DNA of 44,996 nucleotides, taken from the sequence record PZ789432.1; one strand, given 5' to 3'. A program made the translations under genes and the position numbers. The notes beneath the pieces are model-generated. The model did no database searches, had not been told where the DNA came from, and saw only the letters and a program-made list of their open reading frames with translations. Below are positions 6,741-44,365 of this stretch, piece after piece (positions within the stretch are counted from its first letter, which is position 1; each line of letters opens with the position of its first letter). This DNA comes from a phage.

Positions 6741-8728
6741 TGGCTATTATTAATAACATCCCGTGCCCTGCCTGTCAAAAGAATGGACATGATATTACTG
6801 GCAACCATCTTATGATATTTGAGGATGGCGCTGGTTACTGTAACCGTGGTCACTTCCATGATAATGGTAAGCCTTATTACCATAAGCCAGAGGGTGGTAT
6901 CGAGATAACCGAATTGCCTATTACTGGCAATATCAAATATACACCTTCTCAATTCAAAGAAATGGAGAAGGAAGGGAAGATAAGCGACCCTAAGCTACGC
7001 GCCATCGCACTTGGTGGTATGCGTATGAAAGATCGTTGGGAGGTCATGAATGAGCAAGAAAGGGCAGACCAAGAAGCAGAGTGGAAGCTTGATGTTGAAT
7101 GGTTCCTCACGCTTAAGCGTAAGAACCTTGTATCCCGTCACATTCGAGGTGACATCGCAGCAATGTACGATGTGCGCGTTGGACACGATGAAGAGGGAAG
7201 AGTCAACCGTCACTATTATCCACGATATGAAAAGGGTGTGCTTGTTGGAGCAAAATGCCGGACGTTGCCGAAGGATTTTAAGTTCGGACACCTAGGTAAA
7301 CTCTTTGGTATGCAAGACCTTTTCGGTATGAACACTTTGTCTCACGTGTTAGACAAGGGGAGACGAAAGGATTGCTTGCTTATTGTAGGCGGTGAACTTG
7401 ATGCACTAGCAGCGCAGCAGATGCTCCTTGATTCTGCCAAGGGTACTAAGTGGGAAGGCCAGCCATACCATGTATGGTCTGTCAACAAAGGCGAGTCTTG
7501 TCTTGAAGAGATAGTGCAAAACCGTGAGCATATCGCCCAATTCAAGAAGATTATATGGGGTTTTGATGGAGATGAGGTAGGGCAGAAGCAGAATCAGCAA
7601 GCGGCTCGCCTGTTTCCTGGCAAATCCTATATCCTTGAATACCCCTCTGGTTGCAAAGATGCTAACAAGGCATTGATGGCTGGCAAGGCTAAAGAGTTTG
7701 TAGATGCATGGTTTAATGCCAAGTCATCTGATGAAGTCTTTGGTAGCCAGATTAAATCTATCGCATCTCAAAGGGATAAGCTCAAGGCTGCACGTCCAGA
7801 GCAAGGACTATCATGGCCTTGGCCTAAGCTGAACAAGGTCACGCTAGGTATTCGTAAGAACCAACTTATCATTGTAGGCGCAGGCTCTGGTGTAGGTAAG
7901 ACTGAGTTCCTTCGTGAAGTAGTTAAGCACCTCATTGAAGAACACGGTGAATCTGTAGGCATCATTTCTACAGAAGACCCGATGGTCAAGGTGTCCCGTG
8001 CTTTTATCGGCAAGTGGATTGATAAGCGCATTGAGTTACCGCCAACCAACGACCCGAAAGAAGATGGATACCGTGAGGTGTTCGACTACACCGAGGAAGA
8101 GGCTAACGCCGCCATTGATTATGTAGCTGATACAGGTAAGCTGTTTGTAGCTGACCTAGAGGGTGACTATTCGATGGAAAAGGTAGAGCAAACTTGCCTA
8201 GAGTTTGAGGCTATGGGCATTTCTAATATCATCATTGATAACTTAACGGGGATTAAATTAGATGAGCGTGCTTTTGGTGGGAAGGTTGGTGCACTTGATG
8301 AATGCGTCAAGCGGATTGGTACTATCAAAGACCGACACCCGGTTACTATATTCCTTGTATCACACCTTACACGTCCTCCGGCAAACCGTACCCAACACGA
8401 AGAAGGTGGCGAGGTTATCCTTTCTGACTTCCGAGGCTCAGGCGCTATCGGATTCTGGGCATCTTACGCCTTGGGGATTGAGCGTAATACAAGAGCTGAA
8501 ACGCTTGACGAAAGGACTACCACGTACATCTCATGTGTCAAAGACCGCGACCAAGGAATATTTTCCGGTACTCGTATAATGCTTAAAGGTGATATTGCTA
8601 CTGGTCGATTACGTGAACCAGAGCAAAGATCTCGACCGTTTGATACTGGTGCTCCAAAAGAACAAACTGTACCAGAAGAAGTAGTGGATAAAGGAGGATT
8701 TATTGCTGACGAAGTTGAAGAGTTTTGA
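6740..8728 (+). CDS. DNA primase/helicase (T7 gp4-like)
   Basis: 662 aa; N-terminal zinc ribbon CPACQ...CNRGH; Walker A VGAGSGVGKTEF; acidic C-terminus ending EEF. Confidence 0.93.
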   Translation: MAIINNIPCPACQKNGHDITGNHLMIFEDGAGYCNRGHFHDNGKPYYHKPEGGIEITELPITGNIKYTPSQFKEMEKEGKISDPKLRAIALGGMRMKDRWEVMNEQERADQEAEWKLDVEWFLTLKRKNLVSRHIRGDIAAMYDVRVGHDEEGRVNRHYYPRYEKGVLVGAKCRTLPKDFKFGHLGKLFGMQDLFGMNTLSHVLDKGRRKDCLLIVGGELDALAAQQMLLDSAKGTKWEGQPYHVWSVNKGESCLEEIVQNREHIAQFKKIIWGFDGDEVGQKQNQQAARLFPGKSYILEYPSGCKDANKALMAGKAKEFVDAWFNAKSSDEVFGSQIKSIASQRDKLKAARPEQGLSWPWPKLNKVTLGIRKNQLIIVGAGSGVGKTEFLREVVKHLIEEHGESVGIISTEDPMVKVSRAFIGKWIDKRIELPPTNDPKEDGYREVFDYTEEEANAAIDYVADTGKLFVADLEGDYSMEKVEQTCLEFEAMGISNIIIDNLTGIKLDERAFGGKVGALDECVKRIGTIKDRHPVTIFLVSHLTRPPANRTQHEEGGEVILSDFRGSGAIGFWASYALGIERNTRAETLDERTTTYISCVKDRDQGIFSGTRIMLKGDIATGRLREPEQRSRPFDTGAPKEQTVPEEVVDKGGFIADEVEEF

Positions 8729-9191
8729 GGCAGCAGGATATACCATCAAGGAGGATGGTACTATCCTTAACCCTAAAGGTGTAATACTTAAACCGAGCCA
8801 ATCAGGAAGGAAATTAAAGTATTTATATGTAAGTTGGAGACATCAAGGAAGAAGAGTAACAGAGCTTGTACACAGATTGGTTGCTAAGAAGTACATACCC
8901 AACCCACACAGTTTACCAGAAATTCATCATAAAGACTTTAACCCTCTTAATTGTCATAAAGACAATCTTGAATGGACAGATGGTAAGACTAATTGTGAGT
9001 ATAGTTATGCAAGGGTAGAAGCTGCACTTGCACGTCATGCTACTTTATTGTCACCTGATGGCATTAAGTACGACATATTTAATGTTCGTAAATTCTGCCG
9101 CGAACATGGCCTCAATCCACCTAGTGTATTTGAGGTGCTTAGTGGTAAACGGAAGTCACATAAAGGGTGGACTATTTACCGGACACTATAG
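8703..9191 (+). CDS. HNH homing endonuclease
   Basis: 162 aa; EIHHKDFNPLNCHKDNLEW HNH motif. No in-frame ATG; starts at TTG 8703 six nt after AAGGAGG, inside the last 26 nt of the helicase gene. Confidence 0.8.
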   Translation: MLTKLKSFEAAGYTIKEDGTILNPKGVILKPSQSGRKLKYLYVSWRHQGRRVTELVHRLVAKKYIPNPHSLPEIHHKDFNPLNCHKDNLEWTDGKTNCEYSYARVEAALARHATLLSPDGIKYDIFNVRKFCREHGLNPPSVFEVLSGKRKSHKGWTIYRTL

Positions 9192-10703: not shown

Positions 10704-10908
10704 ATTAAGCAAGGTTTGCTCTTGCGGTAAAGGCTATCGCAGTCGTATTGATGGTAAGTGTGGACATTGTAGGTCTAAGAAAGAGGCTGCTTTGTTTTAC
10801 AAATACCACAATGAACTCTCCTATAACTACCCTCATCTAACACCTAATTCTTTATTAGGACTTGGTTATAGGGCTAAATACTTTGGAGCAATCTATGAAA
10901 TCAATTGA
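10690..10908 (+). CDS. hypothetical zinc-ribbon protein (72 aa)
   Basis: ORF track 10663..10908; ATG 10690 preferred (GAGG 6 nt upstream); CSCGKG...CGHC motif. Confidence 0.5.
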   Translation: MKTIKLSKVCSCGKGYRSRIDGKCGHCRSKKEAALFYKYHNELSYNYPHLTPNSLLGLGYRAKYFGAIYEIN

Positions 10909-11380
10909 TTGGAAGAAGGAAGCGGAAGGGCGCATCCTAGTTATGGACGCCGAGGCGAAAGGTCTACTTGATGCTATACGCTATGGTCATCGTGAAGACG
11001 TGCATATCATCTGCTGTATGGACCTGTTGACTACAGAGGAGTTTCTCTTCTTCGACCCGTATGAGATGCGTGACCCTGAAGCAAGAGAACGCCTGAAGGA
11101 ATGGGAAGGTCATCAAGATGGTGACTTGGTTGATGGTGTTAACTTCCTGAAGCATTGTGAAGCTATTGTGTCACAGAACTTCCTAGGGTATGACGGACTT
11201 CTCTTTGAGAAAGCATTCCCTGATATTTGGAAGGGCTTTAACTATACCGAGAAGCGCGGTAAGGGCAGACTCCGTGCTGACCTGTGTCCGGTGCGAGTCA
11301 TGGATACGCTGGTGATGAGTCGCCTGTTAAACCCAGATAAGACGCCTTCCTCCGCAAGCATATGCCAAAGGTATGGGTAA
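10895..11380 (+). CDS. DNA polymerase (Pol I family), fragment 1 of 4: 3'-5' exonuclease domain; frame-disrupted
   Basis: ORF track 10862..11380 (TTG), first ATG 10895; Exo motifs ILVMDAEAKGL and NFLGYDGLLFEKAF; VMDTLVMSRLL parallels T7 gp5 CIDTLVLSRLI. Homology continues in another frame. Confidence 0.85.
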   Translation: MKSIDWKKEAEGRILVMDAEAKGLLDAIRYGHREDVHIICCMDLLTTEEFLFFDPYEMRDPEARERLKEWEGHQDGDLVDGVNFLKHCEAIVSQNFLGYDGLLFEKAFPDIWKGFNYTEKRGKGRLRADLCPVRVMDTLVMSRLLNPDKTPSSASICQRYG

Positions 11381-11786
11381 CGTCGCCCCTCACTCAATTG
11401 AGGCGCACGGCATCCGTATAGGCCGCTATAAACCGGAGAACGAGGACTGGTCTAAACTAACTGACCACATGGTTCACCGTGTACGTGAGGACGTGGCGAT
11501 TGGTCGTGACTTGTTCCTCTGGCTCTTTAACGGGGAATGGATGGAGCATAAACGCCGTGGCGTGAATAAACGCACGGGCCTAGGCATTGAGACAGCCTTC
11601 CACATGGAGTCCATTGTGGCGCTGGAGATGAGCCGTCAGGCCGAGCGGGGGTTCCGTCTGGACATCGACAAGGCTTTGGCCCGATGCGAAGAATTGGACG
11701 CTAAGATTGATGAGACAGTCGCAGCGTTCCGCCCTCACATGCCTATGCGTATCAAGTCTAAACCTTTTAAACCGGAAGAAAAGTAA
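11373..11786 (+). CDS. DNA polymerase, fragment 2 of 4; frame-disrupted
   Basis: HSIEAHGIRIGRYK parallels T7 gp5 HALEAWGYRLGEMK; the frame is open upstream from 11331, so the shift lies near 11335..11372. Confidence 0.8.
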   Translation: MGNVAPHSIEAHGIRIGRYKPENEDWSKLTDHMVHRVREDVAIGRDLFLWLFNGEWMEHKRRGVNKRTGLGIETAFHMESIVALEMSRQAERGFRLDIDKALARCEELDAKIDETVAAFRPHMPMRIKSKPFKPEEK

Positions 11787-12445
11787 TGAAGTATGCCAAC
11801 GCGCAAATGAGTATGGAGCTAGCAACAATATACCTACTGTCCTTGACCCCTCACACTTTCTTCATGCCGAGAGACGAGGAGATCGCAAGACAGTATGGAG
11901 AGCTTGTCACTACTAAGTCTGGTGATTGGTCGGCTAGTGTTAAGAAAGACTTTCCTCACCTTAGAGGAAACCGTAATGACACGCCAAGCATCAAGTGGAT
12001 TGGCGCTTACTCGCCTGTTACTTTCGAAGAGATTCCCTTGGGTAACAGGGATACAGTTAAGCAAGTGCTCTATGATTATGGATGGAAAGGTGTTGAATTT
12101 AACGATACCGAGCAAGCGCATCTCGATGAGTACGGAGTGTTACCCAAACCTTGGAGTGGTAAGATAAATGAAAAGTCCCTCACTTTATGGCAAGAAAGAG
12201 CCGCACGTGAAGGTAAAACAGTACCTGATTGGTGCTTGGGTATCGCTGCATGGTACATACTCGTATCCCGTCGTGGTCAGATACTCAACCGTGGTGACGT
12301 TGAAGCCTTCAACGAGAAGGGGAACGTGGCCCTCGCAGGCTGGTGTACGAAAGTGTCGCGGCCTTGTACCTGTAGCATTCAACAAGGAGCTAGGAATCAA
12401 TGCGCAGCAATACTACGAGAGGTACGGATGTTGGCCTACGTCTGA
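11786..12445 (+). CDS. DNA polymerase, fragment 3 of 4; frame-disrupted
   Basis: Back in the frame of fragment 1; polymerase-like over its N-terminal two thirds. Confidence 0.7.
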   Translation: MKYANAQMSMELATIYLLSLTPHTFFMPRDEEIARQYGELVTTKSGDWSASVKKDFPHLRGNRNDTPSIKWIGAYSPVTFEEIPLGNRDTVKQVLYDYGWKGVEFNDTEQAHLDEYGVLPKPWSGKINEKSLTLWQERAAREGKTVPDWCLGIAAWYILVSRRGQILNRGDVEAFNEKGNVALAGWCTKVSRPCTCSIQQGARNQCAAILREVRMLAYV

Positions 12446-13448
12446 CAAAGATGACGGAGAGTGGCGTGTTCCAGCTGTTGCTATTAGTATTGGCACTTCT
12501 ACGTTCCGTATGCGTCATCGTAACGTGGTTAATATTCCTGCCCGTGGCTTGTATCCTTTACGTGATTTATTCATAGCAGGGAAAGGCAAGCTAATCCTTG
12601 GTTGTGACGGTGCAGGTCTTGAACTGCGTGTCCTGTCTCACTTCATGAATGACCCTGAGTACCAAGAGATTGTACTGCACGGTGATATTCATACGCATAA
12701 CCAGATGAAGGCTGGTCTTCCTAAGCGTGATATGGCGAAGACGTTTATATACGCCTTCCTCTATGGTTCTGGTATAGCCAACCTTGCAGCAGTCTGCGGT
12801 GTTACTGAGGAAGAAATGAAGGAAGTTGTGGCAAGATTCGAGATTGAACTACCGTCTCTTGCACGTCTTCGTGAGAATGTTATCGCACAAGGTAACAAGT
12901 TTGGCTACCTGCAAGCACCTGATGGGCATTGGGGTCGCATCCGCATGTCTGGTGGTGAACTTAAAGAGCACACGATGCTTAACGTATTACTCCAGATGAC
13001 TGGCTCTTTGTGTATGAAATATGCATTAGTCAAGGCATTTGCAGTAATGCGCAAGGAAGGTGTAGCTTTGGATGCTATGGGAAATCCTTGTGGTGTGGCT
13101 AACGTGCATGATGAAATCCAGATGGAAGTTCCTGAAGAGGAGGTCTTGTATCTTAACTACGACCTACCTTTCACCTTAGATGGGTTCGAAACAGAGAAGG
13201 CTGCTGTGAAAGCAGTTTTCGATGCAGAGGAGAAACGTGTTCATGTGGATTCTGAAGGACGTATGTGGTCTGCTGCAAACCTCGTTAGCGTTGATGCTGA
13301 TGCTGGTGTATTGCATTGCCAGCGCCGTTATCACCGTGCAGGTCATATCATTGCCGACGCCATGACTTGGGCAGGGCAGTATCTGAAGATGCGTTGCCCG
13401 ATGGCAGGAGAATATAAGATTGGCGCAAGCTGGAAGGAAACACACTGA
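12168..13448 (+). CDS. DNA polymerase, fragment 4 of 4: palm/fingers; frame-disrupted
   Basis: Motif A GCDGAGLELRVLSHF, TSTFRMRHRNVVNIP (T7 TGRATHAFPNLAQIP), KTFIYAFLYG, VHDEIQ. Reliable homology starts near 12430; the first ~260 nt of this ORF overlap fragment 3. Confidence 0.85.
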   Translation: MKSPSLYGKKEPHVKVKQYLIGAWVSLHGTYSYPVVVRYSTVVTLKPSTRRGTWPSQAGVRKCRGLVPVAFNKELGINAQQYYERYGCWPTSDKDDGEWRVPAVAISIGTSTFRMRHRNVVNIPARGLYPLRDLFIAGKGKLILGCDGAGLELRVLSHFMNDPEYQEIVLHGDIHTHNQMKAGLPKRDMAKTFIYAFLYGSGIANLAAVCGVTEEEMKEVVARFEIELPSLARLRENVIAQGNKFGYLQAPDGHWGRIRMSGGELKEHTMLNVLLQMTGSLCMKYALVKAFAVMRKEGVALDAMGNPCGVANVHDEIQMEVPEEEVLYLNYDLPFTLDGFETEKAAVKAVFDAEEKRVHVDSEGRMWSAANLVSVDADAGVLHCQRRYHRAGHIIADAMTWAGQYLKMRCPMAGEYKIGASWKETH

Positions 13449-21527: not shown

Positions 21528-23078
21528 ATGAAACAGAGCACAGATTTGGAGTATGGAGGTAAGCGGTCTAAGATACCTAAGCTATGGGAGAAGTTCTCCA
21601 CTAAACGTAGCTCTTTCCTTGATAGGGCGAAGCATTACTCCAAATTAACCTTGCCCTATCTGATGAATGACAAAGGTGATAACGAGACTTCGCAGAATGG
21701 ATGGCAAGGTGTAGGTGCTCAGGCAACTAATCATCTAGCCAACAAGCTAGCGCAAGTACTATTCCCTGCACAGCGTTCCTTCTTCCGTGTAGACTTAACT
21801 GCACAAGGTGAGAAGGTTCTTAATCAGCGTGGCCTGAAGAAGACAGAGCTAGCTACCATCTTCGCTCAAGTGGAAACACGGGCAATGAAAGAGTTAGAGC
21901 AACGTCAATTCCGGCCTGCTGTAGTAGAAGCATTTAAGCATCTTATTGTTGCTGGCAGCTGTATGCTATACAAGCCGAGCAAAGGTGCAATCAGTGCTAT
22001 CCCAATGCATCACTACGTAGTTAACCGTGACACCAATGGCGACCTGTTAGACATTATCTTACTGCAAGAGAAAGCCTTACGCACCTTTGACCCAGCTACA
22101 CGTGCTGTAGTAGAGGTTGGCCTGAAAGGTAAGAAGTGCAAGGAAGATGACAGCATTAAGCTGTACACACATGCTAAGTATCTTGGTGATGGATTTTGGG
22201 AACTCAAGCAGTCTGCTGATGATATCCCTGTGGGTAAGGTGAGTAAAATCAAATCAGAAAAGCTACCTTTCATCCCATTAACTTGGAAGCGAAGCTATGG
22301 TGAGGATTGGGGTCGCCCTCTTGCAGAGGATTACTCCGGTGATTTATTCGTTATCCAATTCTTATCTGAAGCGGTTGCCCGTGGTGCTGCGCTGATGGCA
22401 GATATCAAGTACCTGATTCGTCCTGGTGCTCAAACTGATGTTGACCACTTTGTTAACTCTGGCACTGGTGAGGTTGTCACTGGTGTAGAAGAAGACATCC
22501 ATATTGTACAGTTAGGTAAGTACGCAGACCTCACACCTATTAGCGCGGTTCTAGAGGTATACACTCGCCGTATCGGTGTTGTCTTCATGATGGAGACAAT
22601 GACACGCCGTGACGCCGAACGTGTTACTGCTGTAGAAATCCAGCGAGATGCGTTAGAGATTGAGCAGAACATGGGTGGTGTATACTCCCTCTTTGCTACT
22701 ACTATGCAATCGCCAGTAGCGATGTGGGGTCTGCTGGAGGCAGGGGAGTCCTTCACTAGTGACTTAGTGGACCCTGTGATTATCACAGGTATTGAAGCTT
22801 TAGGACGCATGGCTGAGTTGGATAAACTGGCTAACTTTGCTCAGTATATGTCACTGCCATTACAATGGCCTGAGCCTGTCCTAGCTGCTGTGAAATGGCC
22901 TGACTATATGGATTGGGTGCGTGGTCAAATCTCTGCTGAACTGCCGTTCCTTAAATCGGCTGAAGAGATGGCACAAGAACAGGAAGCACAGATGCAAGCA
23001 CAGCAAGCACAGATGCTTGAAGAAGGTGTGGCTAAGGCCGTGCCGGGTGTAATTCAACAAGAACTTAAGGAGGCGTAA
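21528..23078 (+). CDS. portal (head-to-tail connector) protein
   Basis: 516 aa; position before scaffold and capsid, and size, match T7 gp8-like portal. Confidence 0.88.
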   Translation: MKQSTDLEYGGKRSKIPKLWEKFSTKRSSFLDRAKHYSKLTLPYLMNDKGDNETSQNGWQGVGAQATNHLANKLAQVLFPAQRSFFRVDLTAQGEKVLNQRGLKKTELATIFAQVETRAMKELEQRQFRPAVVEAFKHLIVAGSCMLYKPSKGAISAIPMHHYVVNRDTNGDLLDIILLQEKALRTFDPATRAVVEVGLKGKKCKEDDSIKLYTHAKYLGDGFWELKQSADDIPVGKVSKIKSEKLPFIPLTWKRSYGEDWGRPLAEDYSGDLFVIQFLSEAVARGAALMADIKYLIRPGAQTDVDHFVNSGTGEVVTGVEEDIHIVQLGKYADLTPISAVLEVYTRRIGVVFMMETMTRRDAERVTAVEIQRDALEIEQNMGGVYSLFATTMQSPVAMWGLLEAGESFTSDLVDPVIITGIEALGRMAELDKLANFAQYMSLPLQWPEPVLAAVKWPDYMDWVRGQISAELPFLKSAEEMAQEQEAQMQAQQAQMLEEGVAKAVPGVIQQELKEA

Positions 23079-23773
23079 TGTCTTTCTCATTTACTGAACC
23101 GTCAACCACTCACCCTACTGCTGAAGAGGGTCCGGTAGAAACCAAGGAGGTAACAACTGATGCTGCTACTACTGATACTCCTGCTGACGCTGGCACTGCT
23201 GTACAAGATGACAATGCTGGTGCACAACCTACTGAAGACACCGGAGGAGAAGCTTCTGGACAGCCTTCAGAAAAAGGAGACAATGGCGGAGAGAATGGTG
23301 AACCTAAGCCAGATGATACCGCGACCGACACTGAGGAAGTGCAATACTTCTTCGGAGAACATGAAGTAACAGTAGACATCCCACAGGATGTAACTGACAG
23401 CCTTAAAGAGAAAGGCATTGATGCCAAGCAGGTTGCCAAGGAACTCTATTCCAAAGGTGGCAAGTTTGAACTGTCAGATGCAACCAAGCAGAAATTGTAT
23501 GATGCTTTTGGCAAGTTTGCGGTAGATGCTTACCTGTCAGGTCTAAAGGCTCAAAATGAAGCCTTCTTCCTGAAAGAAGCCAACGCAGCTAAAGAGTTGG
23601 AAGCAGCTAACACCCAACGCTTCTCTGATGTTTCTAAGGAAATTGGTGGCGAAGAAGGTTGGTCCCGTCTTGAGGAGTGGGCACTTGAAGCGCTGTCTGA
23701 TGACGAACTCAACGGCATTCAATGCGGTGATGGAATCTGGCAACCAGTACCTCCAGCAGTACGCTGTGCGTGA
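23078..23773 (+). CDS. capsid scaffolding protein, fragment 1 of 2; frame-disrupted
   Basis: SD AAGGAGG; acidic, Ala/Thr/Glu-rich N-terminus; reading frame is lost near 23712. Confidence 0.75.
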   Translation: MSFSFTEPSTTHPTAEEGPVETKEVTTDAATTDTPADAGTAVQDDNAGAQPTEDTGGEASGQPSEKGDNGGENGEPKPDDTATDTEEVQYFFGEHEVTVDIPQDVTDSLKEKGIDAKQVAKELYSKGGKFELSDATKQKLYDAFGKFAVDAYLSGLKAQNEAFFLKEANAAKELEAANTQRFSDVSKEIGGEEGWSRLEEWALEALSDDELNGIQCGDGIWQPVPPAVRCA

Positions 23774-23999
23774 ACTGGAAAGTCGCCGGAAGGCTGCACA
23801 GGGTGATGACAAACCAAACCTGATTGAACCCTCTGCACCTGCTGCTGCGTCTGAAGATAATGGCCCACTCTCTCGTGAGCAGTACCTGCGTGAGATGATG
23901 ACTCTTAGCTCTCGCTTCGGTACAGACAAGAAAGCTGCTGCTGAGTATCAGGCTAAACTGGATGCTCGCCGTCGTGCTGGTATGGCTCGCGGTCTGTAA
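23628..23999 (+). CDS. capsid scaffolding protein, fragment 2 of 2; frame-disrupted
   Basis: Removing one G from aacGGcattc at ~23711 joins ...ALSDDELN to AFNAVMESGNQYLQQYAV... giving a ~307-aa protein. Confidence 0.7.
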   Translation: MFLRKLVAKKVGPVLRSGHLKRCLMTNSTAFNAVMESGNQYLQQYAVRELESRRKAAQGDDKPNLIEPSAPAAASEDNGPLSREQYLREMMTLSSRFGTDKKAAAEYQAKLDARRRAGMARGL

Positions 24000-24003
24000 T
24001 CAG

Positions 24004-24027
24004 TATTTACTGGACACTATAGAAGGG
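24004..24027 (+). promoter_or_regulatory. phage RNAP promoter for the capsid gene (tatttactggacactatagaaggg)
   Basis: Exact consensus; +1 G at 24022; transcript starts with hairpin gggagaaaatgtctccc. Confidence 0.8.
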
Positions 24028-24076
24028 AGAAAATGTCTCCCTAAATTATCAATTTGATTTATAAGGAGGTTTATTA

Positions 24077-25282
24077 ATGAGCACCCCGAATAACCTGACC
24101 AACGTTGCAGTCTCCGCTTCCGGCGAGGTAGACAGCCTTCTCATTGAGAAATTCAATGGCAAGGTAAATGAGCAGTACCTGAAAGGTGAGAACATCATGT
24201 CCTACTTTGATGTTCAGACTGTTACTGGTACTAACACTGTAAGCAACAAATATTTGGGTGAAACCGAGTTGCAGGTTCTGGCACCGGGCCAGTCTCCGGC
24301 TGCAACCTCTACTCAGGCCGATAAAAACCAACTGGTAATTGACGCCACTGTTATTGCTCGTAACACTGTGGCTCACCTGCATGACGTACAGGGTGATATT
24401 GATAGCCTGAAGCCGAAGCTTGCTACTAACCAAGCGAAGCAGCTGAAGAAGATGGAAGATGAAATGCTGATTCAGCAGATGCTGCTGGGCGGTATTGCTA
24501 ACACTCAGGCTAAGCGTACTAATCCGCGTGTTAAAGGACATGGCTTCTCTGTCAACGTAGAAGTTGCAGAAAGTGAAGCACTGGTCAACCCGCAGTATGT
24601 AATGGCGGCTGTAGAGTTTGCTCTGGAGCAGCAGCTTGAGCAGGAAGTAGACATCTCTGATGTAGCTATCCTGATGCCGTGGCGCTACTTCAACGTACTG
24701 CGTGATGCAGACCGTATCGTTGACAAGAGCTACACCATTAGCCAGTCTGGTGCAACCATTCAGGGTTTTGTTCTGTCTTCTTACAACTGCCCTGTTATCC
24801 CGTCTAACCGCTTCCCTAAATTCTCTGCTGGTCAGAAACATCACCTGCTGTCAAATGAAGACAACGGTTATCGTTATGACCCGACTGCAGAAATGAATGG
24901 CGCTATCGCTGTACTGTTCACTGCTGATGCGTTGCTGGTTGGTCGTTCTATTGATGTTACTGGCGATATCTTCTATGAGAAGAAAGAGAAGACCTACTAC
25001 ATTGATACTTTCATGTCTGAAGGTGCAATCCCTGATCATTGGGAAGCAGTGTCTGTTGTGACAACTAAGCGTAACTCATCTACTGGTGAGGCTGAGGGTA
25101 CTGATGGAGCACAGCACACTCAAGTTCTTAACCGTGCACAGCGCAAAGCTGTATACGTCAAGAATGCTGCTCCGGCAGGTGCTGCCGCTGCTGCTAGTCT
25201 GTCTGCTGAAGACTTAGTTGCTGCTGTCCGTGCTGTCATGGCAAATGACATTAAGCCGACTGCAATGAAACCTGCTGAGTAA
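24077..25282 (+). CDS. major capsid protein
   Basis: 401 aa; strong SD AAGGAGG; framed by promoter and terminator like T7 gene 10. Confidence 0.85.
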   Translation: MSTPNNLTNVAVSASGEVDSLLIEKFNGKVNEQYLKGENIMSYFDVQTVTGTNTVSNKYLGETELQVLAPGQSPAATSTQADKNQLVIDATVIARNTVAHLHDVQGDIDSLKPKLATNQAKQLKKMEDEMLIQQMLLGGIANTQAKRTNPRVKGHGFSVNVEVAESEALVNPQYVMAAVEFALEQQLEQEVDISDVAILMPWRYFNVLRDADRIVDKSYTISQSGATIQGFVLSSYNCPVIPSNRFPKFSAGQKHHLLSNEDNGYRYDPTAEMNGAIAVLFTADALLVGRSIDVTGDIFYEKKEKTYYIDTFMSEGAIPDHWEAVSVVTTKRNSSTGEAEGTDGAQHTQVLNRAQRKAVYVKNAAPAGAAAAASLSAEDLVAAVRAVMANDIKPTAMKPAE

Positions 25283-32210: not shown

Positions 32211-35200
32211 ATGGAACAAGATATTAAGACTAATTGGGCTGGATATGTCCAGTCTACTCCTGAGCCGTTTTCTATTGAGGCGGCTCCGGTATCGGCTCCT
32301 ACGATACGCCAGCGTAATGAGTTACAAGAGCAAGTTCTTGAAGCTAAAGCGGATGCTGATATCTTAGGTGCTGTAGGTGCTGCCTTCCAGAATGAGTGGT
32401 TGGCATTCGGAGGCAAGCGGTGGTATGACCGTGCCACTGCTGATTTCACACCTCAACCAGACTTCGAGATACAACCTGAGCAACGTGAAGCACTACGTTT
32501 CAAATATGGTACAGATATGATGCAGACAATCACTGAGGGTGTTCGTTCTGAGGATGAATTGAACTTCCGTATTCAGAATGCTGATGAAGACCTTGAGCGC
32601 AATAAGCGCATTGCTCAGGCTGGCTGGGTTGGCTCTGTGGCGACGATTGGCGCTGCTGTGCTTGACCCTGTGGGATGGGTTGCCTCTATTCCAACCGGTG
32701 GTGCCGCTAAAGTTGGACTCGTAGGCCGTGCTGTGCGTGGCGCTATCGCCGCTGGCGTAAGTAATGCCGCTATTGAATCCATATTGGTCCAAGGTGACAT
32801 GACTCGTGATTTAGATGACATTATGGTAGCACTAGGCTCCGGTATGGCTATGGGTGGCGTTATTGGAGCTGTAGCGCGTGGTAGGGCCACTAAGCTCAGT
32901 GAGCAAGGAGATGACAGGGCTGCGAGCATTGTGCGCAGTGCAGACGCAGGGGACCGCTATGTGCGTGCTGTTGCTGATGATAGTATCGGTGCGATGCGTG
33001 TTAAGGGTGAAGAGGTACTCACTGAGGGTGCATTTGATATCTCTAGCAAAGGTGAAGATTTGCTGAAAACCCTACAGCGGGAAGGTAATGCAATTGATAT
33101 GACCCCTCGCCGCTGGGCCGGAACTCTGTCTGCCCTTGGGACTGTCGTGCACTCCTCTCATGATACTAGTGTTCGTGGCCTCGGTGCTCGCCTGTTTGAG
33201 TCTCCGCAAGGTTTAGGTATGCAAAAGGCATCTGCCAGTCTTATGCAGAATACCAACTTGAATCGACTGAAGTCTGCTGATATGAACCGTTTCAATGACG
33301 GGTTTGACTTATGGCTCAAAGAAAATAATATCAATCCAGTTGCAGGCCATACTAACTCTCACTATGTGCAGCAATATAATGAGAAGGTATGGGAAGCTGT
33401 ACGCATCGGTATGGATGAGTCTACGCCTAAGTCTATCCGCATGGCAGCAGAGGGGCAGCAAGCTATGTACCGTGAAGCCTTAGCTTTAAGGAAGCGCTCC
33501 GGTGAAGCTGGCTTTGAAAACATTAAAGCAGATAATAAGTATATGCCTGATATCTTTGACACTATGAAAGCTCGCCGTCAATTTGATAGGATAGGAAAGG
33601 ATATAGATAAAGAAGATATCATTGAGTTATTCTCTCGTGCTTATCAGAACGGCGCTCGTAAAATTCCAAAAGAAGTAGCGGATGAAATTGCACGAGCACA
33701 AGTAAACCGCGTTGCTGGATGCCACCTTGACCGGACAGCTATGAGCTTTGAAAAGGCTATGTCTGGTCAAACCAAAGCAGAATATGAAGCACTAATGCGC
33801 AAAGCAGGCTTTAGTGATGAAGAGATTGAAAAGATGGTAGAAGCTCTGGATAATAAAGAAACCAGAGATAATATCTCTAACCGAGCTAAGATGAGTTTAG
33901 GCTTAGATGTCACTCAAGAGTACAATGGCATTCGTATGCGTGACTTTATGAACACTAACGTGGAAGAGTTAACAGATAACTACATGAAGGAAGCGGCAGG
34001 TGGTGCTGCCTTGGCTCGTCAAGGTTTCTCTACCTATCAGGCTGCACTTAATGCAATTGATCTTGTAGAGCGAAATGCACGAAATGCAGCTAAAGATACA
34101 AAAGCACACGCACAATTTGAAGCGGAGTCGGCTAAGATCCGTCAATCAGAGCCTGATTACAAGAGGGCACAAGAGAAGATTGAAGAGTTAAAGAAGCGAC
34201 TTAAATTGAAAGAGAAAGATGAAGCAGCTGGTCTGGCTATTGATGAAGAAATCCGTCAGATGCGAGAAGGGCTTCGCTTGATTATGGGTAAATCTATCGA
34301 TTCAAACCCACAAGATTTGTCTACTAAAATGCTGCGTCGTGGGCGTGACATTACAGGTGTACTTCGCTTAGGTCAGATGGGCTTCGCACAGCTAGGTGAA
34401 CTTGCTAACTTCATGGGTGAGTTTGGTATTGCTGCCACCACTATGGCTTTAGGTAAGCAATTCCGCTTCACCTCTAAGGCGTTGCGTAATGGCGATGGCT
34501 TCTTTCGAGATAAGAATTTAGCTGAGGTTGAGCGAATGGTAGGTTACATTGGTGAAGACAACTGGCTAACAACTAAGGGTGCGCGTCCAGATGAGTTTGG
34601 TGATGTAACCACAGTGCGAGGGATGATGGCCCATTTTGACCAGTCCATGAACTCTATACGACGTGCTCAGACAAACCTATCCCTCTTCCGCATGGCACAG
34701 GGTTCTCTGGAGCGAATGACCAATAGGCAAATAGCTTTGTCTTTCATTGACCATCTTGAAGGCAAGAAGATTATTCCTCAGAAGAAACTGGAGGAACTTG
34801 GTCTTACTCAGGAGTTCATGACTAACCTACAGAAGCACTATGATGCTAACTCTAAAGGCTCTGGCTTGCTTGGCTTTGATACAATGCCTTATGCCATGGG
34901 TGAAACTTTAGCTAATGCTATTCGTCGTAAGTCAGGTCTAATTATCCAACGTAACTTCATTGGTGATGAAGGTATCTGGATGAACAAAGCACTAGGTAAG
35001 ACATTTGCACAGCTTAAGTCATTCTCTCTTGTATCTGGTGAGAAGCAATTTGGTCGAGGGATTCGCCACGATAAAATTGGTCTTGCTAAGAAGACAGCTT
35101 ATGGTTTTGCTTTGGGTTCAATAGTGTATGCGGCAAAAGCCTATGTGAACTCTATTGGTCGAGAAGACCAAGATGAATATTTGGAAGAGAAGTTATCGCC

Positions 35201-35534: not shown

Positions 35535-36497
35535 TGAGTTATACTTTCACAGAACATATAGCCAACGGTACGCAAGTAACCTATCCCTTTAGCTTTGCTG
35601 GTAGGGATAAAGGTTATCTTCGTGCCTCAGATGTGATAGTGGAGATCTCTTCAAGGTAACACTTGGATTGAGGTTACATCTGGCTGGCAACTAACTGGCA
35701 CGCACCAGATTACTTTTGATGTAGCACCAGTTGCAGGTTTGAAGTTCCGTATTCGAAGGGAAGTACAAAAGGAGTATCCATACGCTGAGTTTGACCGTGG
35801 TGTTACCTTGGATATGAAGTCTTTAAATGGTTCTTTCATTCATATACTGGAGATTACACAGGAGTTACTTGACGGGTTTTATCCAGAAGGATACTTCATT
35901 AAACAGAATGTAAGCTGGGGCGGCAATAAGATTACTGATTTGGCTGATGGCACAAATCCGGGAGATGCAGTAAACAAAGGGCAGCTTGATGCCATTGACA
36001 AGAAGCATACAGATTGGAATGCCAAACAGGACATTGAGATTGCTGGCCTTAAGGCTGGTATGACTTCTGGTATTGCGCACAGAACTGTTCCTTGGTACAC
36101 GATAGCCCAAGGTGGTGAGATTTCCGTAAAACCACCTTATGAATTTCAAGATGCACTAGTTTTCCTTAATGGGGTATTGCAGCACCAAATTGTAGGCGCA
36201 TACTCTATAAGCAACAACACTATCACTTTCGCAGAGTCGCTTGTGGCGGGTACAGAGGTGTATGTGCTGATTGGTAGTCGTGTGGCTACATCTGAACCTA
36301 ATATTCAGTTAGAGTTGAACTTTGACTTAGTAGAAGGCCAACAAGTAGTACAGATTGGCTCTGCATTTAAGTACATTGAGGTCTACCTTGATGGATTATT
36401 ACAACCTAAACTTGCTTATCAGGTAGACGGTGACATTGTTACTTTCTCAGAGGGAGTGCCAGAATGCCGGATGACTGCTAAGATTATCACAGCATAA
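35534..36497 (+). CDS. tail fiber/tailspike adaptor (T7 gp17 N-terminal-domain-like); frame-disrupted
   Basis: ATG 35534 gives MSYTFTEHIANGTQVTYPFSFAGRDKGYLRASDVIVEISSR* (ends 35659). Homology continues in another frame from ~35640 (NTWIEVTSGWQLTG...; ORF track 35739..36497). One indel near 35648..35656 restores ~321 aa. Confidence 0.7.
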
Positions 36498-39628: not shown

Positions 39629-39985
39629 TGCTTAACAAATACTTCAAGCGCCGTGAGTTCGCTTGCCGTTGTGGGTGCGGTACATCCACTGTTGATGCTG
39701 AATTACTACAGGTAGTCACAGATGTGCGTGAGCACTTTGGTTCGTACCTGTAGTAATCACTTCGGGGCATCGCTGTGCTAAGCACAATGCCAACGTAGGA
39801 GGAGCTAAGAAGGTTCCATGCATCTTACTGGTAAGGCTGCTGACATTAAGGTATCTAGGTGTCTGGTACCAATCGGAGGTACGTACAGTACCTCTGCTAA
39901 TAAATACCCTGATAAGTATGGCATTGGTGCTTATACCTACTTTTACCCATATCGACGTTACGAGACAACGAGTGCACGATGGTAA
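39628..39985 (+). pseudogene. endolysin, zinc peptidase M15-type, with about four frame disruptions in this sequence
   Basis: Successive frames give MLNKYFKRREFACRCGCG...VREHFGS / PVVITSGHRCAKHNANVGGAKK / SMHLTGKAADIKV...GIGAYTY / FTHIDV / ...SARW*, together the M15 hallmark. Each break is at a short G or T run. Confidence 0.75.
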
Positions 39986-40094
39986 GATGTGTTGAATGGT
40001 GTGAACGCATGGTTGCCAAAGCATCCAGAGGATGGCAACTATGATGACTGGAAGAACTACTCTGAATTGTTAGCTCAATGGAAAGGGAGATGCA

Positions 40095-40190
40095 ATGAAA
40101 AAGCTGTTTAAGTCTAAGAAGGTTGTAGGTGCACTGGTTGCACTGGTTATTGCACTTGTTTCTGTAGGTCTTGGCGTAGACCTTGGCTGA
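40095..40190 (+). CDS. hypothetical small membrane protein (31 aa)
   Basis: ATG 40095 after AAGGGAG; MKKLFKSKKVVGALVALVIALVSVGLGVDLG. Confidence 0.35.
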   Translation: MKKLFKSKKVVGALVALVIALVSVGLGVDLG

Positions 40191-40324
40191 AGGTACGGAA
40201 GGTTCCTGTCACTGACGTGGTCTGCCAAGTGATCACCTGTGAATAAGGTGCTTGAAGTGGTGGCAGGTCTTATTGGCCTGCTGCTTGCCGCTAAGAAGAA
40301 GCAAGGAAGAAAAGGAGGCACAAA

Positions 40325-40426
40325 GTGAAGCGAATCATGCTAGCGACAATCCTGCTGATTGGTTCGCTGACCACTTCCGGGTGTCAGACAGGCGTTACCA
40401 GAGAGTCCAATGGTGAAACCGTCTGA
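40325..40426 (+). CDS. small lipoprotein-like ORF (candidate o-spanin-like)
   Basis: GTG 40325 six nt after AGGAGG (or ATG 40337); MLATILLIGSLTTSGCQTG has a signal peptide with lipobox-like TSGC. No intact i-spanin ORF is visible. Confidence 0.35.
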   Translation: MKRIMLATILLIGSLTTSGCQTGVTRESNGETV

Positions 40427-42652: not shown

Positions 42653-44365
42653 ATGCTTCAAAGATTAAGTGCTTACTTGGTGAAGTACAAGAGTAAACTA
42701 ACAGGTACTATTGAGCGCCTGCTATCTGATAAACTATCGGATACAATAGACGTTGCGGATTTTGGAGTTAATCCCTCTTCTAATGACAACAGGCAAGCCC
42801 TTCAAGCTGCATTCAATGCGGTCAGATTGCTAGGCGGTGGTACTGTATCAGTCACTAAAGCTGGCGAATATAAACTCAGTGGTACTGTTGAGATATTTGC
42901 TAATACACACTTCAAGGTTGCTAAAGGTGTAACATTTGTACGTGACTACGAAACAGGAGATACGCTATTCAGATTATCACAAGGGCAAGCTAGTAATGTA
43001 ACAGTCAGTGGAGGTATCTATGAAGGCAATGGTCACACTAAGGGAGATACACCTTTTGTAGTATTTGCATCTACTAGTAATAATGATTTGAAGTTTGAAG
43101 GCATAACAGTTAACAATGTAGTGGACTACCACGCCATAGATTTAGCAGATTGGAACAACGTAGTTATTCGTGATTGTAAATTCCTAGGGTTTAAGAATAC
43201 AGGCAGTCGTAACTTCTCAGAGGCTATACAGTTAGACCCAGGTCTTATTACAGTTGGTCACTATGTACAGTCAAGCGGTATGCTGGTGGAGAATTGCTAT
43301 GCTGGTCCAAACCCAGAATCAGGGTTTGGGGGTTATGGTGCACTAATCGGAAATCACGCCTCAGCTTATGGTGTACAGGACAACAATATCCGTATCTTGA
43401 ATTGCACTACAGATGGTGCTCTCTTTGCAGGTGTACGTGTATTTAACTGGAAAAACTGGACAGTACGTGGTTGTACCTTTAGAAACTCTAATGCAAGAGG
43501 TGTTCATGTTACACCTGTCTCCTCTCAAACTAAACCGCAAGGAACTCGACAAGGTAGTGTTGTAGATTGTACTTTTGATGGCGTAAGAACACCAGTGCTA
43601 ATTGCTGCACCATCTTGGCCTTTTACAGATATTAGTGACATTTGGCATGACCATATTGAAATTTCTAATAATACTATGATCCTCACAGAGGATGTATCCT
43701 ATGGTGTAGATGCAAGGTGGTGTAAGAATTTAATTGTAAAAGGTAACACTGGTTCTGGCGGCTTAGGGTTAATCGGTTTACGCTTTGGAACAAAGTACCA
43801 CATCGAAGGTAATACTTGGGAAAACGGAAGAGGTAGTGGGATTTGGTTAGGTGAGTCTGATGCTACTACATTCATTGGTACTGGCTTATCTGGAGAAGGT
43901 ATACTTAGTCGTAATATCCTCTCTAAATTAGGGCAATATGGTATTCATGTAAACTGCAAGGCTGGCGGTCTAGTGATTAAAGCTAATAATATGAAGGAAG
44001 TATCTACAGCTGAAGCAGGTAGGCACTTCATTAGCATAGACACAGGAGCTAACAACATCCTAGTAGAAGGTAATATTGGAGTAGATGGAGAAAGCCCTAA
44101 CAAGCCAAGCTTGGGTATTCGTGTTACTTCTTCTTGTTCCAATATTAAACTCATTGGCAATGATTGCTATGGTACACAGGCGCCTCAGAATAACCAAGGG
44201 GTTGGTTCTAGTACGGTGATTGTTTATGGACTAAATGGCAATCCTACAACTTTAGGCGTAGGTGCACCTGTTGGCTCTTTAGCAACTGATATCAATGGGT
44301 CTGGTGGTAGTACATTGTACGTTAAAGAATCTGGTACATCTGCTCAAGGTTGGGTTGCAAAGTAG
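42653..44365 (+). CDS. tailspike 2 (pectate-lyase-fold beta-helix depolymerase)
   Basis: 570 aa; SD AAGGAGG; N-terminal DVADFGVNPSSNDNRQALQAAFNA...GGGTV typical of pectate-lyase-type tailspikes, followed by beta-helix-like repeats. Confidence 0.85.
   Translation: MLQRLSAYLVKYKSKLTGTIERLLSDKLSDTIDVADFGVNPSSNDNRQALQAAFNAVRLLGGGTVSVTKAGEYKLSGTVEIFANTHFKVAKGVTFVRDYETGDTLFRLSQGQASNVTVSGGIYEGNGHTKGDTPFVVFASTSNNDLKFEGITVNNVVDYHAIDLADWNNVVIRDCKFLGFKNTGSRNFSEAIQLDPGLITVGHYVQSSGMLVENCYAGPNPESGFGGYGALIGNHASAYGVQDNNIRILNCTTDGALFAGVRVFNWKNWTVRGCTFRNSNARGVHVTPVSSQTKPQGTRQGSVVDCTFDGVRTPVLIAAPSWPFTDISDIWHDHIEISNNTMILTEDVSYGVDARWCKNLIVKGNTGSGGLGLIGLRFGTKYHIEGNTWENGRGSGIWLGESDATTFIGTGLSGEGILSRNILSKLGQYGIHVNCKAGGLVIKANNMKEVSTAEAGRHFISIDTGANNILVEGNIGVDGESPNKPSLGIRVTSSCSNIKLIGNDCYGTQAPQNNQGVGSSTVIVYGLNGNPTTLGVGAPVGSLATDINGSGGSTLYVKESGTSAQGWVAK

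Follow-up and report, generated by a model that had tools for sequence, protein, structure and literature searches.

An extra A private to one K1E-like phage genome sequence interrupts its head scaffolding gene and is very probably a sequence error

Results

The head scaffolding gene is interrupted by a single base

The DNA analysed here, hereafter the window, is a stretch of 44,996 nucleotides (nt; record PZ789432.1) that comes from a K1E-like phage (Vectrevirus, a genus of the Molineuxvirinae) and has the length of a genome. Our subject is its head scaffolding gene, which lies between the portal and the major capsid genes (Table 1), in an order shared with VEc3, K1E, and KMB14 and in the position of an SP6/K1E-type scaffold. 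The ATG of the gene overlaps the portal stop codon (TAA, 23076-23078). As written, the gene has a length of 3n+1 and its frame is lost at 23711/23712: the ATG at 23078 opens an open reading frame (ORF) of 231 amino acids (aa) that runs to a TGA at 23771-23773, and in the +1 frame no stop occurs between 23574 and the TAA at 23997-23999. The product of the gene as written would end ...DDELNGIQCGDGIWQPVPPAVRCA. When VEc3 proteins were used as tblastn queries, the scaffold match was split into query residues 1-216 (frame 2) and 212-306 (frame 3). Region 23000-24100 had matches in 91 GenBank phage records, headed by Vectrevirus PDP21P6 (98.6 % identity) and Escherichia phage VEc3 (98.1 %), and no record of the phage collection exceeded 98.6 % identity to the window in the scaffold region.

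An initial annotation, made from the letters of the window alone, had described a scaffolding gene interrupted by a single-base excess near 23712, and both statements hold: the gene stands between portal and major capsid protein, its 922 nt contain ORFs in two frames, and its repaired product matches PHROG 1018 ("head scaffolding protein"; E = 6.6e-71), with residues 23-306 aligned to profile positions 3-280 of 280. The same annotation had placed the break exactly at a GG doublet and had repaired it by deleting a G (aacGGcattc). Deletion of the G does join the frames into a 921-nt ORF, but the product has 306 aa and not the anticipated ~307, and it would read ...DDEL-N-AFNAV..., an Asn for Thr exchange at residue 212 that was seen in no relative. 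The GG doublet itself is kept in 17/17 related loci inspected. In a DNA alignment with VEc3, K1E, Sem2, Sem4, and PDP21P6, the sole gap falls within the AA doublet of the window, where the relatives read GAC GAA CTC ACG GCA TTC and the window reads GACGAACTCAACGGCATTC; in shorter extracts, CTCAACGGC of the window stands against CTC-ACGGC, and CTCAACGGCA against CTC-ACG-GCA. A motif read-out over the 17 loci gave codon 212 as ACG in 14 and as ATG, following CTA, in three, AACG being confined to the window. Deleting one A produces the single-A form CTCACGGC, reproduces the 14-mer of the relatives (CGAACTCACGGCAT) exactly, and yields a protein of 306 aa that reads ...DDEL-T-AFNAV..., with Thr212 and the peptide ...LSDDELTAFNAVMESGNQYLQQYAVR across the site. 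Judged from these alignments, the superfluous base is the A and not a G.

The break is shared with no relative

The scaffold gene measured exactly 921 nt in 17/17 relatives checked, and its coding sequence (CDS) is annotated as one 921-nt gene in VEc3, K1E, KMB14, and UTI89UKE2. As a departure from the family, the break is far beyond chance. At larger distances, tblastn with the repaired protein (E<=1e-10) matched 217 phage records, from which a spread sample of 60 was listed; 59 of these 60 aligned as a single colinear piece across residue 212, down to ~28 % identity, in a range extending from Vectrevirus over SP6 to phages of Proteus, Erwinia, Vibrio, Pseudomonas, and Marinomonas. The lone exception in the sample, vB_Ka_Sem4, has fragmented portal and capsid genes as well.

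At the nucleotide level, a 36-mer of the window across the site occurred in none of the IMG/VR contigs and its A-less version in four. Among 50,697 GenBank phage records searched by megablast with 49-mers, seven matched the version of the window, all of them aligning 49 query bases to 48 record bases, and the A-deleted control was colinear in 26; the 49-nt query was meant to force seeds spanning the insertion, but with queries this short the program evidently starts from shorter words. The number of GenBank phage records carrying the extra A was zero. Four full-length contigs (three from Logan, one NCBI assembly) encode exactly the portal protein of the window, each with an intact 306-aa gene adjoining; two shorter contigs with the exact portal end inside the scaffold gene, and every contig that reaches the site is without the extra base. 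In the nearest contig with the exact portal (L015; ERR13914503), the scaffold differs from the repaired protein at residue 212 only. Furthermore, a protein collection of ~15 billion sequences contains neither of the two apparent products (231 aa and 123 aa), nor does it contain the capsid protein of the window. Relatives with the same truncated scaffold were found neither among the 17 loci, nor in IMG/VR, the GenBank phage records, or the contigs with the exact portal. Across these collections, the comparisons show the extra A to be private to the window sequence.

The downstream segment retains its coding signal

With the A removed, the protein is 99.0-99.3 % identical to those of VEc3 and PDP21P6. 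In comparison with relatives carrying the same C-terminal allele, differences downstream of the break fall almost all on third positions of the restored frame, with synonymous to non-synonymous counts of 10:0 (VEc3), 29:1 (K1E), 19:0 (T147P1), 18:0 (T147P9), and 9:0 (GCA_053216955). By this substitution pattern, the displaced segment is free of decay and looks selected in the restored frame. The single uninterrupted ORF of ~300 aa expected of an SP6/K1E scaffold is missing from the sequence as written and present after removal of one A, and we attribute its absence to the sequence error and not to the gene, which by its full-length profile match and identities is a typical representative of the SP6/K1E head-scaffolding family (PHROG 1018).

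As a separate observation, scaffold residues ~247-306 (23816-23999) occur in the genus as two sharply different alleles, with ~60 nt or 20 aa differences in a gene that is otherwise nearly identical (loci L016, L017, and L025-L028). This C-terminus looks like a recombination module and possibly co-varies with the capsid protein that it binds.

Private insertions are scattered over the window

To take a census of such events, each genome in turn was queried against all others, and private, isolated indels of a length other than 3n were counted. The window has 12, all of them insertions and none a deletion, and in 14 relatives the count per genome is 0-5 (median 1) and comprises both types of indel; a five-genome version gave 15 in the window versus 0-4. 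Of 16 large conserved genes, four have a broken frame in the window, and 13 relatives show no such break, the split terminase gene (TerL) of K1E being its annotated homing-endonuclease insertion. Mapping of the VEc3 proteins onto the window revealed breaks in eight other genes, namely those for DNA polymerase, exonuclease, a gp37-like tail adaptor, endolysin, a small ORF, holin (for which the VEc3 protein mapped only partially), Rz, and tailspike (Table 1), and nowhere in the genome do extra bases lie more densely than in the block from endolysin to Rz. Read from their starts, the broken genes reach a stop at codon 162 of 848 (DNA polymerase), 215 of 342 (exonuclease), 42 of 320 (adaptor), 42 of 114 (endolysin), and 375 of 632 (tailspike). 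The fragments are nevertheless 97-100 % identical in amino acids to functional relatives, with 93-99 % to VEc3 for the DNA polymerase pieces. DNA polymerase and scaffold are essential in the T7 group, and by analogy both are probably essential here as well; since the broken genes are presumed essential, replication, assembly, and lysis would all be impossible for a lytic phage with the complete set of lesions.

A second single-A excess lies close to the scaffold gene (Table 1), at the stem-loop junction of a hairpin in the 5' leader of the capsid transcript (GGGAGA-AAATG-TCTCCC, 24025-24041), right after a promoter-like element. The loop has five nucleotides (AAATG) in the window and reads AATG in 16/18 aligned comparison loci. 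Although this excess is absent from the stricter private list of 14 genomes, it is the same kind of event as that at 23711, and it is harmless because it is non-coding. A further peculiarity was noticed in the large internal virion protein gene, where a +1 and a +2 insertion 25 nt apart (33717-33743) restore the frame but scramble eight residues (VAGCHLDRTAMSFEK in the window versus VADATLT-GQLSFEK in VEc3); the DNA of this stretch resembles a merge of VEc3-type and K1E-type alleles.

Table 1. Position of the scaffold gene, its surroundings, and the extra bases in the window
Feature	Position	Strand	Remarks
Portal gene	21528-23078	+	Directly before the scaffold gene
Shine-Dalgarno sequence AAGGAGG of the scaffold gene	23067-23073	+	Read from the sequence
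Head scaffolding gene (orthologue of K1E gene 30 / VEc3 gp36)	23078-23999	+	922 nt as written; 921 nt (306 aa) minus one A
Apparent 231-aa product	23078-23773	+	211 authentic scaffold residues, then 20 out-of-frame residues (NGIQCGDGIWQPVPPAVRCA), TGA
AA doublet with one superfluous A	23711-23712	+	Single A in relatives; codon 212 is ACG (Thr), or ATG (Met) in a second haplotype
C-terminal 94 scaffold codons plus stop, in the +1 frame	23715-23999	+	100 % aa identity to VEc3 residues 212-306
Phage-RNA-polymerase promoter-like element TTACTGGACACTATAGAAGGGAG	24007-24029	+	Just 3' of the scaffold stop, upstream of the capsid gene; identical in relatives
Second single-A excess (AAAA versus AAA)	24030-24033	+	320 nt downstream of the scaffold break; non-coding
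Major capsid protein gene	24077-25282	+	After the scaffold gene and promoter-like element
Copies of the promoter-like element	9176, 13733, 15648, 24007, 38883, 40568	+	Motif scan
DNA polymerase insertions	11338 (+1), 11784 (+1), 11901-11904 (+4, AGCT), 12319 (+1)	+	Gene 10895-13448 cut into five frame pieces
Exonuclease insertion	17004	+	Private +1 (T to TT)
Tail adaptor (gp37-like) insertion	35644-35645	+	Private +1
Endolysin, small ORF, holin, Rz	39744-40421	+	Insertion cluster including +2 at 39812, +1 at 40388, +1 at 40421
Tailspike insertion	41775	+	Private +1

Other features of the window

The promoter-like element downstream of the scaffold gene, which we take to be of the SP6/K1E type, recurs in the window as TTACTGGACACTATAGAAG: with up to three mismatches (<=3), six copies were found, all on the + strand, where chance would give none (0 expected). 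These are presumably promoters of the phage RNA polymerase. Within the acidic N-terminal region of the scaffold gene, an alternative-frame ORF of 69 aa (23160-23369, + strand) corresponds to the annotated gene 30.5 of K1E (hypothetical protein); its product would be hydrophobic with many Leu residues, and the ORF has probably been called spuriously. Elsewhere, an ORF of 162 aa (8703-9191, + strand) with ~40 % identity to the HNH endonucleases of VEc3 immediately follows the primase/helicase gene, a position that is empty in VEc3, and the HNH gene that VEc3 carries between TerS and TerL is not in the window; these are differences in mobile homing endonucleases. An ORF of 570 aa (42653-44365, + strand) in the position of the second tail fibre or spike had no tblastn match to VEc3 gp55 and is a different receptor-binding module, probably with a different host capsule specificity.

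Sequence context of the insertions

The private insertions are partially clustered at 11.3-12.3 kb, 23.7-24.0 kb, and 39.7-40.4 kb and display no preference for homopolymers. An error of the homopolymer type known from some platforms was considered and is not supported, as only about one in three of the private single-base insertions repeats an adjacent base, which is roughly the random expectation. At three of 18 insertion sites, two alleles known from relatives appear strictly stacked, i.e. both are kept: CA and AG become CAG at 391, GGAGTCT and GGAATCT become GGAGATCT at 35644, and CAGCAGG and CAGACGG become CAGACAGG at 40388. A random-insertion null gives 3.3 %, for which a binomial estimate yields P of about 0.02, with sites that were partly hand-picked. 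A looser form of the pattern is visible at 33717, 33742, 40189, 40203, and 40305. Tentatively, the stacked sites hint that several closely related phages were mixed in the material behind the consensus, or that its reads or templates were noisy.

Stacking was also tried as the origin of the scaffold site, where hapB-type flanks (GAAGCGCTGTCT ... GGAATC) surround a core resembling a merge of CTCA-CG and CT-AATG. In the strict test, the site is a plain insertion relative to an existing haplotype, and mixed flanks also occur in natural recombinants (L011, L008, and L009). Stacking was kept as a tentative side note only, and the idea of mixed templates was not used in judging the scaffold site.

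Discussion

It was observed directly that the scaffold gene has an extra base, that this base is private, that insertions are in excess throughout the genome, and that several presumed-essential genes are broken; the technical cause of the extra A is what we infer from them. We consider it very likely that the break is an insertion error of sequencing or assembly and not a real feature. One spurious A would have entered at 23711/23712, where A was written AA, during sequencing, consensus calling, or assembly, and the same error process would have left at least a dozen other private insertions across the genome. The real phage would then almost certainly encode a normal scaffold of 306 aa (...EALSDDEL-T-AFNAVMESGNQYLQQYAVR...), with a translation that begins at the ATG of 23078, in coupling with the stop codon of the portal gene, and ends at the TAA at 23997-23999. 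What one expects of an artefact was found in combination: the indel is private, it stands in the company of private frame-breaking indels in presumed-essential genes, clearly more numerous than in sister genomes, and the displaced segment is undecayed. The initial annotation had asked for the read pile-up, and the suspicion of a sequence error implied in this is in line with our result; it had missed the other private insertions, which also break the genes for DNA polymerase, exonuclease, adaptor, endolysin, Rz, and tailspike. It is this set of about a dozen private insertions that settles the interpretation of the scaffold break.

Some points weigh against an error. It was deduced by comparison and not observed in reads, and a profile consisting only of insertions outside homopolymers is unlike the best-known platform signatures, given that errors of 454, Ion Torrent, and Nanopore sequencing concentrate in homopolymers. 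Moreover, all of the comparisons made would have given the same picture for a real mutation of very recent date. The extra A could thus be a genuine frameshift of very recent origin within an accurate sequence of a defective genome, be it a non-viable variant or one carried by a helper in a mixed lysate or metagenome. The comparative tests cannot separate such a mutation from an error, and the three stacked sites of 18, against a null of 3.3 %, would fit a sample containing more than one closely related Vectrevirus. We nonetheless regard this as improbable: about a dozen independent insertions would be needed without a single deletion, striking the DNA polymerase gene four times and in addition those for exonuclease, scaffold, adaptor, endolysin, Rz, and tailspike, whereas real mutational decay also brings deletions and substitutions. 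No other decay is seen, the fragments remain nearly identical in amino acids to relatives, and no other assembly shares any of the insertions. Even harder to credit is a real, multiply frameshifted and non-autonomous Vectrevirus "cheater" genome complemented by a related helper in a mixed population; were it true, the stacked-allele sites would be traces of recombination with the helper.

Two further explanations would take the two frames at face value, and to both we assign a next to negligible probability. Programmed +1 ribosomal frameshifting (or transcriptional slippage) at CUC-AAC-GGC would yield the full-length scaffold together with a 231-aa isoform, and the frames do overlap by ~200 nt (23574-23770), so that in principle a shift anywhere in this zone gives the full-length protein; frameshifting is also known from the capsid gene of T7-like phages (10A/10B, a -1 shift). 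Programmed frameshift sites are conserved, however, and the two-frame arrangement exists in no relative (17 loci, 17 genes of 921 nt, and 59 of 60 records in a single frame); this lack of conservation effectively refutes the idea. The zone 23574-23770 has neither a run of >=4 identical bases, nor a slippery motif, nor a rare A-site codon (AAC and GGC occur at 21 and 18 per 1000 codons), a tRNA on CUC or AAC cannot re-pair in the +1 frame, and the same mechanism would have to work at >10 unrelated contexts in other genes. A literature search combining K1E, scaffolding protein, and frameshift returned nothing useful. Alternatively, the gene might be truly split into an N-terminal protein of 231 aa and a separately initiated C-terminal fragment, for which a TTG at 23685 in the downstream frame, with AGGAG 8-12 nt upstream, could serve as start. 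The same TTG/AGGAG context is present out of frame in the aligned relatives and is hence fortuitous; the ATG candidates at 23628, 23700, and 23730 are without a Shine-Dalgarno sequence, no relative is split save the generally fragmented record of Sem4, and the 123-aa product is in no database searched.

An error in the sequence, which we favour, has significance for data quality only and reveals nothing new on scaffold biology. Annotated automatically as written, the window would yield a truncated scaffold, a DNA polymerase divided into five pieces, and defective genes for exonuclease, adaptor, endolysin, Rz, and tailspike, and such pseudo-pseudogenes pollute protein databases and are mistakable for recoding or gene decay. 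The practical yield is a list of coordinates to re-check and correct, together with the right repair of the scaffold gene, i.e. removal of the A, which gives Thr212, and not of a G.

Several known systems invite comparison with the scaffold locus. The gp9 protein of T7 comprises ~307 aa. The similarity in size noted by the initial annotation stands, and the scaffold further shares with gp9 the genomic slot flanked by the portal and major capsid genes and a presumed role in assembling the procapsid, but sequence homology was not detected: the repaired protein matched no Pfam family at E<=0.01 and no PDB chain, and T7 was absent among the 60 listed of the 217 tblastn matches (E<=1e-10). The resemblance is thus an analogy by position and size, and family membership is not demonstrated. 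Gene 10A/10B of the T7 group, like the window, presents two overlapping frames in a head-morphogenesis gene. There, a -1 shift on a conserved slippery sequence generates a C-terminally extended minor product, whereas in the window a +1 shift would be required, at a site that is neither conserved nor marked by a motif. Comparable, too, are the low-quality records of vB_Ka_Sem4 (PV775411) and vB_Eco_Sem2 (PV775413), in which indels not found in relatives divide the scaffold gene into several CDSs, as they do the portal and capsid genes of Sem4; their breaks lie at other positions, and neither carries the extra A of the window. The nearest counterpart is the K1E-like scaffold itself (K1E gene 30, YP_425007; VEc3 gp36, YP_009796101; PHROG 1018), which occupies the same slot, overlaps the portal stop in the same manner, is followed by the promoter and the capsid gene, and has the 921 nt that the gene of the window regains once the A is removed, the sole difference being the extra A at 23711/23712.

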